The notes under the pieces: model-generated
Database searches by the model: none
Seen by the model: the letters and a program-made list of their open reading frames with translations, nothing else
What the model was told of the DNA's origin: nothing
Shown here: in pieces, positions 3,776 to 64,000 of the stretch
Position numbering within the stretch: position 1 is the stretch's first letter
How the letters are laid out: the number at the start of each line of letters is the position of its first letter
DNA from: an uncultured Gemmatimonadales bacterium
Lineage (GTDB): Bacteria; Gemmatimonadota; Gemmatimonadetes; Gemmatimonadales; GWC2-71-9
Direction of reading: 5' to 3'
Length of the DNA: 64,000 nt
NCBI GenBank assembly: GCA_963740175.1
Contig: CAVUDL010000006.1
Coordinates: 31,067-95,066 of the forward strand
Position numbers and translations under genes: made by a program

Positions 3776-5066
3776 TTTTGCCTTGAGGACCCGCTCCACC
3801 TCTCGAAGATCTGCGTCGATCTCGATTGGACGATTGGCGCCCGGCGGCGGCGGGTCGATCTCCTGGTGGTAGCGCAGCAGCAGTCCGGGGTCCTTGAGGA
3901 TGTGGCCGGTGAGGATGGCAACCACCCGGTCACCGGGCTTCATCGTCCCCGCGCCGACCAACTGTCGAATGCCCGCCAGCGTAACCGCGCTGGCGGGCTC
4001 GCAGCCGATTCCGGACGCATCGATGGCCGCCTTGGCTTCCAGCAGCTCGTCATCGGAGGCGGACAGCACCACGCCATCGGTCTCACGAATCGCTCTCCAC
4101 GGCGCGGTCATAGGACGCGGGATCTCCGATTCTGATCGCGCTCGCCACCGTGTCCGCCTTGACGCGGTGCCGCCGGGCAAAGCCTTCGGCAAAGCTGCGT
4201 GCGAAGGGGGCTGCGCCGGCGGCCTGCACCGCCGCCAGCCGGGGCAGCCGTGAGATCAGCCCCCACTCGCGGGCTTCGTGCAGGACTTTGCCGAAGGCGG
4301 CGGTGTTTCCCAGGTTACCAGCCGGCAGGACGATCCAGTCGGGCGGCGCCCACGAGAGCTGCTGGAGCAGCTCGAGGATGATGGTTTTCTGCCCTTCGAT
4401 CCGGAAGGGATTGATGGAGTTGAGCAGATAGACGCCGAGCTGCTCACTGGCCTGCTCGACCAGCCGAAGGCAATCGTCGAAATCTCCCCGCACCAGCAGC
4501 GTCCTCGCGCCGTACGCAAGCGACTGTGCCAGCTTGCCCGTGGCGACGCCATCGAGGGGTACCAGCACCAGCGCCGGTAATCCCGCCTGCGCCGCATAGG
4601 CGGCGAGTGAGGCGGAGGTGTTTCCGGTTGACGCGCAGGCCACCGCGGTGGCACCGATGCGCCTCGCCTGGGTGACGCCCACGGTCATCCCCCGGTCCTT
4701 GAAGGAGCCGGTGGGGTTGTGACCTTCGTGTTTGAGCAGCAGATGATCCACGCCGGCCCAGCGGTCGAGGGCGACCCGGTGCAGCAGGGGGGTGTTTCCC
4801 TCCGGGTGCGACACGACGGTGTCGGCCGAGGGAAGGACGATCTCGCGGAAACGCCAGACCCCGGAGGCGGTGGCGCCGGGCTGCCCGCCGCGCCGCTCGG
4901 TGAACCGCTGGATCAGCTCCGCCGGACTCATCGCCGGCGGCCGGTGGCGAATCTCCAGCAGCCCCCCACAGCTGGCACAGCGCGGGTGCGGATCGGTCTC
5001 CACCACCTCGTTGCCGCAGGCGATGCAGACTTGCCAGCTGGCGGGCCTCGGCGTTTCGAATCTCAT
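3764..5066 (-). CDS. thrC: Threonine synthase; one apparent frameshift near the C-terminal third
   Basis: ORF 4083..5066 has an N-terminal Cys4 ribbon (CIACGN...CASCGG) and a PLP-enzyme core (GSFKDRGMTV). The C-terminal part continues in ORF 3764..4192. The gene sits directly downstream of thrB. Confidence 0.85.
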
Positions 5067-5084: not shown

Positions 5085-6019
5085 CTAGCCGACAACCCGG
5101 GCTCCTTCACGGTCGATGCGCGCCACCCGGACCTCACTCCGGTGACCACAATTACTGTACGCTGCCGACATGGCCGCGGCGACACGCTCCCCGACCTCCT
5201 GGCCTTCGACCAGCGCGAACGCGGTGGGACCGCTGCCCGAGATGGAGCTTCCCAGCGCTCCGGCGTCCAGCGCCGCGCGCTTGGCTTCGAGGAACCCGGG
5301 CAGCAGCGGTGCGCGGACCGGCTCGGCGATCCGGTCATCGATGGCGCGACCCAATAGCGCGTAGTCACCAGACGCCAGCGCTGCGACGATCGCCCCGACC
5401 TGCGCCGCCTGATACACCGCCGCCTCCCGATCGACCTGGGAGGGAAGGACTCTCCGAGCCTCCGCCGTACGCAGCTGCTGGTGGGGACGCACGACGACGA
5501 CGCGTAGCCGCTCCGGCACCGGCAGCTCGATGAGGTCCAAGGGGTCCAGCGATCGGATCAGCACGATGCCGCCGAGGAGAGACGGGAGCGACGTTGTCGG
5601 CGTGACGCCCCGAGACGCCCTCCTCTGCCTCGAGGGCCGCACTCAGCAGCGCCGCGCGGTCGAGCGGATTCCCGAGCAGTGCATTCACGGCCACCGCAGC
5701 GGCAACCGCCGATGCCGCGCTGCCTCCCTGGCCTCCGGAAAGCGGCAGACCCTTCATCACGGTGAGGCCGATACCCTCGGTCCGGGCGCGCTCGTAGGCC
5801 GACCGGTCCAGCACGGCCCGAGCGGCCAATCCAGCTGTGTGACGGGCAGCATCGGCCGGGAAGATCGCGGTGGCCGGGATCAAGAATCTGAATCCCGGGA
5901 TTCGCGGTCCATTCGGCCCGGACCGTGTCACCCGGGCCGTCCAGCGCCAGTCCCAGGATGTCCAGGCCCGGCCCGATGTTGCCCACGCCCCCCGGGGCGA
6001 ATGCGGCAACTGAGCTCAC
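5085..6019 (-). CDS. thrB: Homoserine kinase (GHMP family); two apparent frameshifts
   Basis: Pieces in three frames: VSSVAAFAPGGVGNIGPGLDILG (frame of 5558..6046), GLPLSGGQGGSAASAVAAAVAVN (frame of 5365..6009), and C-terminal ORF 5085..5642 (GSSISGSGPTAFAL). A GTG start is proposed at 6019. Confidence 0.8.
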
Positions 6020-8534
6020 GATCCCCCGCCAGCCGCAGGATGTCATTGAGCACCCCCGCGGCGGTCACCTCTGCTCCCGCCCCCGGCCCGGTGATGACGA
6101 GTGGGTTGGCCTTGTACCGGTCGGTGACGAACACCAGTTGGTTGTCCGAACCCTTGATCGCGGCGAGCGGACTGGTGGTGGGGACCGTCTGCACCCCAAC
6201 GGCGATCTCGCCGGCCGAAACCGATGCGACGTACCTGAGCACCGATCCTTGCGCGGCCGCGGCATCCACCCGCCGCTGCCACATGGGATCGAGCTCTTCG
6301 AGCCGGGCGAGGAAGTCGGCGAGCGGGAGCGATCGGGCCCACTTGGGCACCAGCGACTCCACCGCGCTCTGCTCCAGCTCGCCCTGGTATCCGAGCAAGC
6401 GGGCGAGAATGAGAGCTTTGCGCGCGACATCCATCCCCGAGAGGTCATCCCGTGGGTCGGGCTCGGTGTAGCCCTTGGCCATGGCGCTTCGCACTGCCCG
6501 CGAAAAGGGGACACCCGCGGAGACCTCGCTCAGCACGTAGCCGAGGGTTCCGGAGAGCAGCCCCTCGATTCGGTTCACCCGGTCGCCCGATTCGACCAGC
6601 TTGTGATACGTATCGATGATCGGCAGGCCGGCGCCGACGGTTGCTTCATGGAGAATGCGTCGTCCCCGCGCCCGGGCCGTCTGCCACAGACCATTGCTCA
6701 CCGTCTGCCGGTCGGCCAGGGGACGCTTATTGGCCAGCACCAGATCCATCCCGTGAGTCAGCGCCTGTTCCAGCGCGGCAACCGTGTCATCGGCCGTGAG
6801 GTCCACGAGCACCGGGCGGGTCAGCGCATAGCCGGCGATATGGGAGACGGCGTCTGCCGCCTTCGCCTGCTGACCCTTCGGCAGATCCGCCAGCCGGCGA
6901 CCCTTGCGCTTCTCGGAGGCGAGCGAGCTCAGCCGCCGCGGGCTGATACCTTCGGGATCGAACACGAACCCAGAGCGATCGATTACAGCCGCCACCCGCA
7001 GGGAGAGAGCAGGTCGGCTGACACGGCTCAACAGCGTGGCAAGGGCTTGGCCGATCTGTCCGAAGCCGAGCAGCACGACCTCCATCTGCTCGGGGCGGAT
7101 CACCGAGCCGCCCGCGATGCGTGACAGCCGGAAGGCAGCATGAATCCGTCGCTGCGCTTCCGCGGCGTCGGCGGCTGACACCACCACCGAGATGTTCAGC
7201 TCCGACGAGCCCTGCGCGATCGCCACGACGTTGAGTCCGCCTGCCGCAAGCGCTCCAAACACTCCCGCCGCCACACCGGGCGTGCCGTGCATTCCCAGTC
7301 CCACCACCGCCACGGTCGCCATTCCCGGGCTCACCTCCACCCCGTCGATCTCCCGCCGGGCGATCTCTCCCTGAAACTCCAGAATCAGGCTGTCGCGGGC
7401 ATCGGTGGCGAAGGCCTCGGGAACGCTGAAACAGATCGAGTGCTCGGACGAGGCCTGCGAGATGAGCGAGACCGAGATTCTCCTGCTGTGCAGCGCAGCG
7501 AAGGTGCGGGCCGCGATGCCGGGCACACCCAGCATGCCATTCCCGGTCACCGTGATCAGCGCCTGCCCACCCGCGGCGGTCAGTGCCTTGACCGGCACCC
7601 GCCCGGGCGCCACCTCTTCCGACACTTCCGTTCCCGGTGAGGCCGGGTCCTCGAACGGCCGCACATAGATCGGAATATGCCGTCCAGCGATCGGGATCAA
7701 AGCGCGCGGGTGGAGCACCTTGGCTCCGTAGTAGGCCAGCTCTGCCGCCTCGCGGGCGTGAAGCTGGGGGATCACCCGGGCATCCGGCACGACGCGCGGG
7801 TCGGCGGTGAGGAGTCCGGGAACATCCTTCCAGAGTGAGACCCGCTCCGCGCCCAGGGCTCGGGCCAGAAGCGTTGCGGTCAGATCGGATCCGCCGCGCC
7901 CGAGTGTGGCCACCTCCCCGTTGGTGGCGGCGCCCAGAAATCCGGGGACCACGGGCACGGTGCCGCGCGCCAGGATCGGCTGCAGCGTCCGCTGAGCCGC
8001 GCGGTCGGTGGCGGCAAAGTCCGGCGCGGCCTGGCCGAAGGCATCATCGGTGTGAATGACCTCGAGGGCGTCTACATACTGGGCCTGGACACTGGCGGCC
8101 TGGAGTGCCGCGGCCAGCAGCCGGGCAGTCAGCCGTTCTCCGCGCGATACCATGTTGTCGCTGGTTCTGGGCGTCAGCTCGCGCAGCTTTCGGAGGCCGG
8201 CGGCGAGCGCCTCCAGCTCCTGAAACGCTTCGCCGATATGCGAGAGCATTTCGGATCGGCCCTTGCCCGCAGGCAGCAGGGTCCGGGCTACCTCCTCGTG
8301 GCGGGTGCGCAGCTCTCCGATCAGGGCCGCAAGGGAGCGCTCGTCACCGGCCCCGGCCTGACGCGCGACGGCGAGCAGCGCGTCGGTCACGCCGGCCATC
8401 GCCGAGACGACCACGACCGTGGGCTCCCGGCGGTGAGTGCGGATGATCTCGACGGCATGGCGGACGGCGGCGGGATCGGCCAGCGAAGCCCCGCCGAACT
8501 TGTGCACGTGCGGCGCGCGGCGGTGTCGTGGCAT
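5928..8534 (-). CDS. thrA: Bifunctional aspartokinase / homoserine dehydrogenase
   Basis: 868-aa ORF with an N-terminal aspartokinase (VHKFGGASL), ACT-like middle region and C-terminal homoserine dehydrogenase (LANKRPLA, ITGPGAGAEVTAAGVLNDILRL). The tail below about 6016 overlaps thrB and is probably created by a 1-nt indel in the C5 run at 6023-6027. Confidence 0.9.
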   Translation of the reverse strand: MPRHRRAPHVHKFGGASLADPAAVRHAVEIIRTHRREPTVVVVSAMAGVTDALLAVARQAGAGDERSLAALIGELRTRHEEVARTLLPAGKGRSEMLSHIGEAFQELEALAAGLRKLRELTPRTSDNMVSRGERLTARLLAAALQAASVQAQYVDALEVIHTDDAFGQAAPDFAATDRAAQRTLQPILARGTVPVVPGFLGAATNGEVATLGRGGSDLTATLLARALGAERVSLWKDVPGLLTADPRVVPDARVIPQLHAREAAELAYYGAKVLHPRALIPIAGRHIPIYVRPFEDPASPGTEVSEEVAPGRVPVKALTAAGGQALITVTGNGMLGVPGIAARTFAALHSRRISVSLISQASSEHSICFSVPEAFATDARDSLILEFQGEIARREIDGVEVSPGMATVAVVGLGMHGTPGVAAGVFGALAAGGLNVVAIAQGSSELNISVVVSAADAAEAQRRIHAAFRLSRIAGGSVIRPEQMEVVLLGFGQIGQALATLLSRVSRPALSLRVAAVIDRSGFVFDPEGISPRRLSSLASEKRKGRRLADLPKGQQAKAADAVSHIAGYALTRPVLVDLTADDTVAALEQALTHGMDLVLANKRPLADRQTVSNGLWQTARARGRRILHEATVGAGLPIIDTYHKLVESGDRVNRIEGLLSGTLGYVLSEVSAGVPFSRAVRSAMAKGYTEPDPRDDLSGMDVARKALILARLLGYQGELEQSAVESLVPKWARSLPLADFLARLEELDPMWQRRVDAAAAQGSVLRYVASVSAGEIAVGVQTVPTTSPLAAIKGSDNQLVFVTDRYKANPLVITGPGAGAEVTAAGVLNDILRLAGDRELSCRIRPGGRGQHRAGPGHPGTGAGRPG

Positions 8535-57287: not shown

Positions 57288-62011
<4,724 letters not shown>

Positions 62012-62252
62012 GGTGTCTCCTGAGTTGTCGTGGCCCAGCAGCCGGAGAGGCTGCATTCGAGGCCATAAAAAAGCCCGCTCCACATTGGGAGCAGGCCGGG
62101 GTTAACGCAGAGCACGCTAACTCACCCGGGCGCTCCCTTGGAGCGGACGAGATTGAGATTGCTGTTGAGATTGACGTTAGTGAGCGACGTGATCATGATG
62201 CATTATTATGCATCGCGGTGCATTCGTCAAGCGGGTGGGGACAGGGGGACAG

Positions 62253-62345
62253 AACTACATACCTGATCCCGAGCGAGCGAAGCGAGAGAGGGACCTTGAC
62301 ACTGTCACCAGAACCCCGTAGCCTCCTGATCCGGAGCGAGGCATA
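62253..62345. repeat. Two direct copies of the GATCCSGAGCGAG-type motif (same family as 52191-52283) in the gltB / leuA intergenic region
   Basis: cctgatcccgagcgagcgaagcgagagagggacc followed by cctcctgatccggagcgaggcataacc. Confidence 0.6.
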
Positions 62346-62383
62346 ACCTTACGCCCGGTCAACTTCCACAGAACGAAACACTC

Positions 62384-62473
62384 ATGCAGCTCGTTCTTCT
62401 CGTCGTCGTCCTCCTCAGCGTCCTGCTTACCGTCCTTATTGGTGAGCAAGAGGTCCACGGCGTGCCTGCATGA
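62384..62473 (+). promoter_or_regulatory. Leu/Val-rich 29-codon leader ORF of a putative leuA transcription attenuator
   Basis: atg cag ctc gtt ctt ctc gtc gtc gtc ctc ctc agc gtc ctg ctt acc gtc ctt att ggt gag caa gag gtc cac ggc gtg cct gca tga, giving MQLVLLVVVLLSVLLTVLIGEQEVHGVPA. Residues 3-19 contain 8 Leu, 6 Val and 1 Ile. The ORF is below the size cut-off of the ORF track. Confidence 0.6.
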
Positions 62474-62501
62474 GACAGTAAGTCTCGACCGATTCCCACT
62501 G

Positions 62502-62538
62502 GCGCCGCGGACCACACAGTCCGCGGCGCTTTTCTTTT
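62502..62538 (+). terminator. Rho-independent terminator (attenuator) 28 nt upstream of the leuA start
   Basis: Perfect 11-bp stem GCGCCGCGGAC (62502-62512) / GTCCGCGGCGC (62519-62529) with loop CACACA, followed by TTTTCTTTT (62530-62538). Confidence 0.8.
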
Positions 62539-62565
62539 GTCCCCTTCGAGGCCTGAAAGCGACGT

Positions 62566-64000
62566 ATGGCAATTCCGGAAGTCCTGATCTTCGACACCAC
62601 GCTGCGTGACGGTGAACAAGCGCCCGGCAACAGCCTCTCACCGGAGGAGAAGCTCCGCCTGGCGCGCCAGATCGACGCACTTGGGGTCGACATCATCGAG
62701 GCCGGCTTTCCGGCCGCATCCGAGGGCGACTACCGGAGCGTGCGCGAGATCGCGGTGGAGATCCGGAGCCCGGTTGTGGCGGCACTGGCTCGCTGCCTGG
62801 ATCGGGATATCGAGCTTGCAGGCGAGGCGTTGAGCGAGGCCGAACGGGCCCGGCTGCACGTGTTCGTCTCCACCTCGGACCTGCATATACGGGAGAAGCT
62901 GCGCAGCACCCGGGAGGGGGTGCTGGAGCTGACCCGGCGCGCGGTCCGCCTCGCACGGGCGTACACCGACGACGTTGAATTCTCGGCCGAGGACGCCAGC
63001 CGCACCGATGCCGACTTCCTCTGTCGCGTGGTCGAAGCCGCCATCCAGGAGGGGGCGACCACGATCAATCTGCCCGACACTGTGGGCTACGCCATGCCCG
63101 ACGAGTACGCCGCAATGTTTCGCGACATCCGGGCCCGGGTACCCGGCAGTGACTCGGTGGTGCTGAGCGCCCACTGCCATGACGATCTGGGCCTGGCGAC
63201 AGCCAACACGCTCGCGGCGATTGCTGCCGGCGCAGCCCAGGTCGAATGCACCATCAACGGCATCGGCGAGCGGGCCGGGAACGCGGCATTGGAGGAGATC
63301 GTCATGGCGAGCCGGGTACGGGGAGCCGCCGTCGCGTTCCATTGTGGTGTGGACTCGCGCGAGATCTACCGTACCAGTCAGCTGCTGTCCTACCTGACCG
63401 GAGCGTTCCCCCAGCCGAACAAGGCCATCGTGGGCCGGAATGCGTTCGCGCACGAAGCCGGGATCCACCAGCACGGCATGCTGCAGAACGGCCTCACCTA
63501 CGAGATCATCCGCCCCGATATGGTGGGGATACCCCGCTCTACTCTCGTCCTGGGAAAGCACTCGGGCCGGCATGCGCTGGAACGCCGCTGCCAGGAGCTG
63601 GGTTATGCGCTGAGTGAAGACGAGCTGGAGGCTATGTACCAGCGGTTTACGGCGCTGGCGGACCGCAAGCGCGAGATTCTGGACGAGGATCTCCTCGCCT
63701 TGCTGCACGAGAGCTTCCATGATGCGCCCGAGGAGTACCAGCTCAGTCACCTTCGCGTCGTCTGCGGCAGTGTCACCGCTACGGCAGAGGTCAGGATGAC
63801 GGGCCCGTGGACCGGAGAGCGGTCGGCTCGCGGAACTGGGGACGGACCGATTGCTGCGGCCTTCGTCGCCGTCAGCGAGATCCTCGACCGCCAGGTGGAG
63901 GTACTCAGCCTCTCGCTGCGATCAGTCACCCCCGGGCGGGACAGCGTGGGCCAGGTGTTTCTCCAGGCCAAGATCGACGGCAAATCGCTGACCGGCCACA
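62566..64000 (+). CDS. leuA: 2-isopropylmalate synthase, 3'-truncated by the window end
   Basis: My own translation from ATG 62566: [52 protein letters not shown]...[45 protein letters not shown]...[11 protein letters not shown]. It is open to position 64000. It is absent from the ORF track, presumably because it has no stop in the window. Confidence 0.9.

Follow-up and report, generated by a model that had tools for sequence, protein, structure and literature searches.

A probable leader-peptide transcription attenuator upstream of the leuA-ilvBNC operon in Gemmatimonadales

The 64,000-nucleotide (nt) stretch of DNA analysed here, referred to as the window, comes from contig CAVUDL010000006.1 of an uncultured Gemmatimonadales bacterium. 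Near its end lies the start of leuA, the gene for 2-isopropylmalate synthase. This gene is preceded, on the same strand, by a promoter, a short open reading frame (ORF) rich in leucine (Leu), valine (Val) and isoleucine (Ile) codons, and an intrinsic terminator. An earlier note on this DNA proposed that the leader is a transcription attenuator, in which a ribosome on the short ORF would determine whether the terminator forms ahead of leuA. The structure and conservation of this element are described below, together with a second leader of similar build that lies on the opposite strand, before the divergent gene gltB.

The leuA gene is the first gene of an operon that extends beyond the window. 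In one relative, profile matches identify both acetolactate synthase subunits and ketol-acid reductoisomerase downstream of leuA, and the order leuA-ilvB-ilvN-ilvC is present in 55 of the 57 related loci that have enough DNA downstream. Judged by gene order, the regulated unit is a predicted leuA-ilvB-ilvN-ilvC operon, covering the common branched-chain pathway and the first leucine-specific step. The operon makes Leu, Val and Ile, which accounts for the occurrence of Val and Ile beside Leu in the leader. On the other side, gltB lies divergently upstream of leuA in 54 of 63 loci. Because this neighbour is divergent, the terminator in the leader cannot belong to an upstream gene.

Comparisons are based on the best 80 leuA loci, all from Gemmatimonadales metagenome-assembled genomes, with 71-91% identity over the LeuA fragment. 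Leaders were compared across the 76 loci that have sufficient upstream sequence, the window included. Structure alignments were made from 73 leaders, and truncated transcripts were folded for 72 loci.

Translation of the window's leader ORF bears out the composition reported in the earlier note, that is, 8 Leu, 6 Val and 1 Ile among residues 3-19 (15 of 17). The codons of this run include CTT three times, GTT once and ATT once. CTT and GTT had been described as rare at this GC content, and they are: among the 76 leuA genes of the clade, each makes up 4% of the codons for its amino acid (Leu and Val, respectively), while ATT makes up 9% of Ile codons.

The ORF is a general feature of the clade. 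An in-frame ORF rich in Leu, Val and Ile, 27-39 codons long (median 32), occupies the same place in 75 of the 76 loci, and the leader start codon is ATG in 73 loci and GTG in 3. All 75 ORFs are distinct in both nucleotide and peptide sequence. Across the 76 leaders, Leu accounts for 28% of residues, Val for 15% and Ile for 4.6%. These three amino acids together fill a median of 13 of residues 2-20, with Val found in all 75 leaders and Ile in 72. The ORFs also have a clear coding signature. Over codons 2-19 of the leaders compared, T occurs at the second codon position in 73% of cases, and at the first and third positions in 4% and 22%. In the close-clade alignment, gaps within the ORF are multiples of three. 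Such a combination of T periodicity, maintained frame and indels in threes would not be expected from RNA structure alone.

Codon choice within the leaders is also distinctive. Relative to the leuA genes, the share of CTT among Leu codons rises from 4% to 32%, that of ATT among Ile codons from 9% to 48%, and that of GTC among Val codons from 41% to 71%. The rare codons CTT and ATT are thus enriched 5-8 fold, which fits the use of rare codons in classical attenuators. As a separate observation, only L032 (around positions 3790-3830) lacks an in-frame ATG to open the Leu/Val/Ile frame. Compared with L034, this locus has 1 nt inserted, which throws the frame off right after the ATG, and this could be either an assembly error or a real mutation.

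The terminator (regions 3 and 4; Table 1) has a G+C-rich stem, GCGCCGCGGAC/GTCCGCGGCGC. The perfect 11-base-pair stem described previously is present, and a closing G-U pair extends it to 12 pairs. The loop is 6 nt long and the T-tract reads TTTTCTTTT. The 11-pair stem begins 28 nt past the leader stop, as had been stated, while the distance from the T-tract to the leuA ATG is 27 nt, rather than the 28 nt given before. The predicted folding energy is -26.3 kcal/mol (z = -6.2), and none of 200 shuffled sequences was equally stable.

The proposed antiterminator uses region 2 (GGTCCACGGCG), a near copy of the 3' arm of the terminator that spans the last base of codon 23 to the first base of codon 27. 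Region 2 can pair at 10 of 11 positions with CGCCGCGGACC (62503-62513), as claimed in the earlier note. The same segment is the best partner within the ORF for the 5' arm of the terminator in nearly all 76 loci, where it begins 57-72 nt into the ORF. Since the best partner is the same segment across loci and the ORF is in frame in 75 of 76, this arrangement is not due to chance. The antiterminator duplex has a mean energy of -28.4 kcal/mol across the 76 loci, compared with -19.6 kcal/mol for shuffled sequences (mean z -3.3). In the 73 aligned leaders, 93.2% of cells are paired for the terminator and 91.6% for the antiterminator formed by regions 2 and 3, against 36-46% in slid controls. The two structures compete for region 3 and are mutually exclusive.

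Conservation of these parts is linked. It had been suggested that loss of the small ORF in relatives that keep the hairpin would speak against attenuation; instead, 75 of the 76 loci keep the ORF, the antiterminator segment and the terminator together. The leader stop always falls between regions 2 and 3. In L060, the nucleotides of region 2 are kept though they are read in a different frame. A core, CGCCGCGG, is invariant across the aligned leaders, as would be expected of a segment constrained by two pairing partners, one of which also encodes peptide. No further copy of the terminator core occurs within the window, and its pattern has only scattered additional matches in related loci.

Some variation in the pairing is seen outside this core. 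In a distant clade, region 2 is extended as CGGGG, which pairs with CCCCG located partly in the terminator loop. Hand-checked comparison of L043 (GTCGGGG/CCCCGAC) with L047 (TCACGGGG/CCCCGTGA) reveals compensatory changes in bases that lie outside the terminator stem. Across loci, cognate combinations of region-2 extension and terminator loop are favoured over non-cognate ones by a weak margin (-5.8 versus -5.3 kcal/mol, permutation p = 0.015), in a comparison where anchoring failed in several loci.

Table 1. Features of the leuA leader and of the divergent gltB leader (positions are those of the window)
Feature	Position	Strand	Basis
Promoter: -35 TTGACA (62296-62301), 17-nt spacer, -10 TAGCCT (62319-62324)	62296-62324	+	comparative
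Hairpin of the 5' untranslated region, CAUAA in loop	62331-62358	+	predicted fold, -12.4 kcal/mol
Leader ORF, 29 codons and TGA, ATG start, encodes MQLVLLVVVLLSVLLTVLIGEQEVHGVPA	62384-62473	+	ORF translation
Candidate regulatory Leu/Val/Ile codons 3-19	62390-62440	+	composition
Region 1, Val/Leu codon run CGTCGTCGTCCTC, possible anti-antiterminator with region 2	62401-62413	+	minimum-energy fold of the window copy
H2, hairpin within the ORF, 9 pairs, loop UCCUUAU with the rare CUU-AUU codons	62424-62448	+	RNAalifold, unsupervised
Region 2, antiterminator 5' strand	62452-62462	+	pairing, conservation
H3, hairpin GAGAC-AGUAA-GUCUC, overlaps the stop codon, inside the antiterminator loop	62472-62486	+	folding, covariation
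Intrinsic terminator: region 3 (62501-62512), loop, region 4 (62519-62530), U-tract (62530-62538); 12-pair stem 62501-62530	62501-62538	+	folding
leuA (2-isopropylmalate synthase), start ATG at 62566	62566-64000, past window end	+	NCBIfam NF002086, E = 1e-202
gltB-leader promoter, sigma-70-like, TTGACG-17-AATAAT	62230-62202	-	sequence
gltB mini-ORF, 24 codons, MITSLTNVNLNSNLNLVRSKGAPG, ATG 5 nt past the promoter (leaderless geometry)	62196-62122	-	ORF translation
gltB-leader terminator, followed by TTTTTT	62097-62072	-	terminator prediction

Two further hairpins flank region 2. H2 lies within the ORF and has two-sided changes at all 8 tested pairs in the 73 sequences (for example, GTC...ATC becomes ATC...ATT); it is possibly a pause or scaffold hairpin. 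H3 has two-sided changes at all 5 of its pairs, and 67% of its cells are paired in a MAFFT alignment. An additional helix was considered between the start-codon region CTCATGCAG (62381-62389) and the stop-codon region CTGCATGAG (62466-62474), which are perfectly complementary and pair in the minimum-energy fold of the window copy. It was dropped as a general feature, since only 58% of its cells pair across relatives, and it is probably either incidental or restricted to the close clade.

The promoter places the predicted transcription start of the window's leader near 62329-62331, giving a predicted 5' untranslated region (UTR) of about 55 nt that contains a hairpin. A consensus scan missed this promoter because its -10 box fits TATAAT at only 3 of 6 positions. 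The pattern TTGAC(A)-17/18-TAnnnT occupies the corresponding position in 75 of the 76 loci compared. In ten of 75 loci (L005, L012, L020, L035, L040, L060, L068, L076, L078 and L079), the leader ATG lies only 1-10 nt past the -10 box, which suggests that the leader peptides of these loci would be translated from leaderless messenger RNAs. The occurrence of an ATG at the predicted transcription start in these loci supports the promoter assignment as well as the use of this ATG. Within a single order, the leuA attenuator consequently exists in leaderless and in leadered (34-89 nt UTR) form, and offers a natural system in which to ask how a leader peptide without a Shine-Dalgarno sequence is translated.

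Among the 75 loci compared for 5'-UTR features, 34 (L003, L007 and L055 among them) carry the motif [C/T/A]ATAA[A/C/G]N, mostly in a hairpin loop as GCAUAAAGUU, and the motif is missing from the leaderless loci. It is reversed (TTTATGC) in a few loci, namely L049, L052, L064, L073 and L075. Such a reversal would be compatible not only with an RNA element but also with a DNA-level site or a small inverted insertion.

Alternative folds of the leader were compared under different ribosome positions. Equilibrium folds of the full leader do not separate the expected states, and transcripts ending just before region 4 were therefore folded instead. For the truncated transcript of the window copy, all three states predicted for an attenuator were reproduced. 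In the absence of a ribosome, regions 1 and 2 pair with each other (the 1:2 pairing), so that region 2 does not hold region 3. When a ribosome occupies the stop codon, region 2 is covered and no antiterminator forms. With a ribosome stalled at codons 3-15 or 19, region 2 is left free, as had been predicted for a stall in the Leu/Val run, and H2, the antiterminator and H3 form together. The stretch that contains these three structures folds at -38.9 kcal/mol (z = -3.35). Across the 72 loci, stalls at codons 3-20 yield the antiterminator in 78-99% of cases.

Taken together, the element is interpreted as a ribosome-mediated leader-peptide transcription attenuator of the leuA-ilvB-ilvN-ilvC operon, with a probability of roughly 0.77. 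We infer that the ORF is translated, for which the three-base periodicity, the conserved frame and the leaderless geometry of ten loci are indirect evidence, that ribosomes stall within it, and that read-through responds to branched-chain amino acids. Under this model, transcription would start about 55 nt upstream of the 29-codon ORF. When charged Leu, Val and Ile transfer RNAs (tRNAs) are plentiful, a ribosome would traverse the ORF and region 2 and reach the stop codon. Region 2 would then be covered, or re-captured by upstream RNA, allowing regions 3 and 4 to pair as the terminator, and RNA polymerase would stop at 62538. When one of these tRNAs is scarce, the ribosome would stall in the Leu/Val/Ile run and leave region 2 free to pair with region 3 as soon as the latter is made, helped by the flanking H2 and H3. 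The resulting antiterminator would block the terminator, and leuA-ilvBNC would be transcribed. Termination after full translation probably hinges on passage of the ribosome across region 2, and may also need disruption of H3 and fast re-pairing behind the ribosome.

A number of observations weigh against this interpretation, and several concern the folding logic. Whatever part of the full leader a ribosome masks, the terminator is favoured at equilibrium, so the choice between structures would have to be kinetic and made during transcription, as in classical systems. In the truncated transcripts of the 72 loci, the antiterminator forms not only on stalling, but also when the transcript carries no ribosome (64%) or one positioned at the stop codon (74%). 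The latter result arises because the stop lies 9 nt farther from region 2 in most relatives. The earlier claim that a ribosome at the stop covers region 2 therefore holds for the window copy and fails for most relatives, and covering is not a general explanation of termination. The 1:2 pairing is also weakly supported as a specific helix: 74% of its cells pair in the 73 sequences, compensatory changes are few if any, and across loci it is no better than in composition-matched shuffles (mean z 0.07).

Other reservations concern the antiterminator, the codons and translation itself. The window's antiterminator contains a mismatch (A62457/C62508), and when this copy is considered by itself, 11 of 200 shuffles do as well as its duplex energy of -23.3 kcal/mol. 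Regions 2, 3 and 4 have an invariant core, so most of their pairs cannot show covariation. The bias towards pyrimidine-ending codons could equally stem from RNA pairing or from a pyrimidine-rich strand. As the earlier note had cautioned, no Shine-Dalgarno sequence precedes the leader ATG of the window (acagaacgaaacactcATG), where the 5' UTR is about 55 nt long; the leaderless geometry of some relatives makes this less worrying. Lastly, Streptomyces coelicolor has similar leader ORFs and alternative structures ahead of ilvB and leuA, and their mutation reportedly did not give the behaviour of classical attenuators (PMC1262725); this precedent is one reason to keep the functional claim below certainty.

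Several of these features could also be produced by a conditional terminator that operates without translation, in which a protein or small ligand stabilises the antiterminator or the terminator, and the ORF is a by-product of the RNA sequence. The nucleotides of regions 2, 3 and 4 are indeed kept more strictly than the peptide, L060 reads region 2 in another frame, H2 and H3 are conserved hairpins with covariation, and the window copy has no Shine-Dalgarno sequence. Such an arrangement would not, however, be expected to maintain the coding frame in 75 of 76 loci, with T at 73% of second codon positions, indels in threes and an ATG at the predicted transcription start in ten loci. Nor does it match the agreement between leader composition and the products of the operon, or the lack of any match to a riboswitch, T-box or other Rfam family, and it is considered very unlikely. 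It is unlikely, too, that a translation-coupled attenuator at this locus senses general translation capacity or coupling, such as general starvation, rather than Leu, Val and Ile specifically. The leuA leader is consistently rich in these amino acids in all 75 distinct sequences, while the remaining peptide varies freely, and such enrichment is the signature of amino-acid-specific attenuators that precede operons making those same amino acids. What lends some weight to general sensing is the gltB leader, which has the same build and no single enriched amino acid, yet is rich in rare U-ending codons. In addition, the ribosome-free truncated fold of most relatives is already the antiterminator, so that translation itself would cause termination.

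The ORF might alternatively encode a small hydrophobic peptide that functions in the membrane and has a terminator of its own, in which case leuA would be expressed by partial constitutive read-through. The peptide resembles a single transmembrane helix with a polar tail, and its length is conserved. However, the hydrophobic stretch keeps only its Leu/Val/Ile composition and not its sequence, such that all 75 peptides differ, and those C-terminal residues that are conserved fall on the RNA pairing segment, which L060 reads in another frame. The four leader peptides scanned match no Pfam or NCBIfam family, and the ORF is always located between the promoter and leuA, with the antiterminator overlapping it. 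A membrane peptide is therefore highly improbable, and an attenuator that responds to branched-chain amino acids is the preferred explanation.

The element matched no catalogued family. A permissive Rfam scan of 61900-62700 (E up to 10) returned no leader family and no T-box (RF00230), only generic terminator look-alikes. At gathering thresholds, a scan of ten relatives likewise gave no leader family or T-box, and only tRNA-Sec elsewhere. Scans of four representative leader peptides against NCBIfam and Pfam, with E up to 10, gave no meaningful match.

The best-known counterparts are the enterobacterial leaders of ilvGMEDA (IlvL), ilvBN (IvbL) and leu (LeuL), where branched-chain biosynthetic genes are preceded by a short ORF with many Leu, Val and Ile codons. 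These leaders have an intrinsic terminator and an antiterminator that uses the terminator's 5' arm, a single leader can sense several amino acids, and the Leu codons include rare ones. The Gemmatimonadales element is alike in layout and proposed function, whereas no sequence or covariance-model similarity was detected in the Rfam search with E up to 10. It also differs in a number of details. Region 2 is placed within the ORF and ahead of its stop; the genes are ordered leuA-ilvBNC; there is no Shine-Dalgarno sequence and some relatives are leaderless; and two extra conserved hairpins (H2 and H3) flank region 2, while the specific 1:2 helix is weakly supported. T-box riboswitches, which often control ilv and leu genes in Firmicutes, make the same decision between terminator and antiterminator according to tRNA charging. 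They bind uncharged tRNA directly and need no ORF, and the T-box model RF00230 was not matched here.

Closer parallels in genome composition exist among the Actinobacteria. In Corynebacterium, Mycobacterium and Streptomyces, ilvBNC is preceded by terminators and by short ORFs in which Ile, Val and Leu codons occur in runs (PMC1262725). Attenuation of ilvBNC in C. glutamicum reportedly has mutational support (PMC11857589). These leaders share with the present one a GC-rich genome and an Ile/Val/Leu ORF with a terminator, but they occur in a different phylum and show no detectable homology. Moreover, actinobacterial leuA has a separate pseudoknot, the 'LEU element' (PMC1262725), whereas a single leader serves leuA and ilvBNC here. 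In Deinococcus deserti, leaderless leader peptides, whose start codon coincides with the transcription start, have been predicted to attenuate genes for amino-acid biosynthesis and tRNA synthetases (PMC4007540). The ten leaderless Gemmatimonadales loci share this geometry, with a start that is predicted from the promoter, while the window copy has a 5' UTR of about 55 nt instead.

A survey from 2010 recorded leader-peptide systems only in Proteobacteria, Actinobacteria and, newly, Firmicutes (PMC2965389), and Deinococcus joined these lineages later (PMC4007540). The earlier note had suggested that this logic was undescribed in GC-rich lineages of this kind. That suggestion does not hold for GC-rich lineages in general, given the reports from Actinobacteria (PMC1262725) and Deinococcus (PMC4007540). 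It does stand for Gemmatimonadota, for which a full-text literature search found no description of leader-peptide attenuation or of a leuA attenuator. The element therefore represents a new lineage for a well-known mechanism rather than a new mechanism, and a lineage-specific family that is absent from Rfam. Comparable leaders with Leu, Val and Ile codons are known from Proteobacteria, Firmicutes, Actinobacteria and Deinococcus.

Understanding of attenuation itself is unchanged by this finding. Its significance lies in extending leader-peptide attenuation, with support from 76 independent loci, to a common soil phylum in which few members have been cultured and gene regulation is almost undescribed. 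It provides a testable regulatory model for branched-chain amino-acid synthesis in Gemmatimonadota. For annotators, it supplies a concrete element that is currently unannotated, consisting of a promoter, a small ORF and a conditional terminator.

The divergent gltB gene is preceded by an attenuator-like leader of its own, which occupies 62066-62230 on the minus strand of the window and is conserved in 53 loci. Its four segments are GUCCGCUCC; GGGAGCG(A/C)CCGGG, with the stop; CCCGGCC(C/U)GCUCCC; and GGAGCGGGC. They are able to pair as 1:2, 2:3 and 3:4. No single amino acid is enriched overall in this leader across the conserved loci, and it has no Rfam match. The label 'Asn leader' was considered for the mini-ORF and rejected, since the asparagine (Asn) richness of the window copy is not conserved (Asn 5% overall). 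The candidate regulatory codons of this leader are instead rare U-ending codons for Asn, Leu and Ile (AAU, CUU and AUU): AAT, CTT and ATT are enriched 16-38 fold among the seven codons that immediately precede segment 1.

A CUU-AUU patch is common to the gltB and leuA leaders. The two could form a back-to-back attenuator pair that responds to the same tRNA pools and couples nitrogen assimilation to branched-chain synthesis, a doubtful but conceivable arrangement. If true, a Gemmatimonadales lineage would couple these processes through ribosome stalling. In enterobacteria, the coupling is carried out by a protein such as Lrp. We know of no previous description of leader-peptide attenuation of gltB.

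Two minor observations were made in the comparison loci. In L003 (5601-7365), two overlapping ORFs (5601-6524 and 6103-7368) stand in place of an intact ilvB. One matches the N-terminal and the other the C-terminal part of the acetolactate synthase large subunit, and the split is probably the result of a frameshift error in the assembly. In L076, a distant relative, a selenocysteine tRNA gene (Rfam RF01852, 80.9 bits) is located at 1375-1464 on the plus strand, about 2.5 kilobases upstream of leuA.

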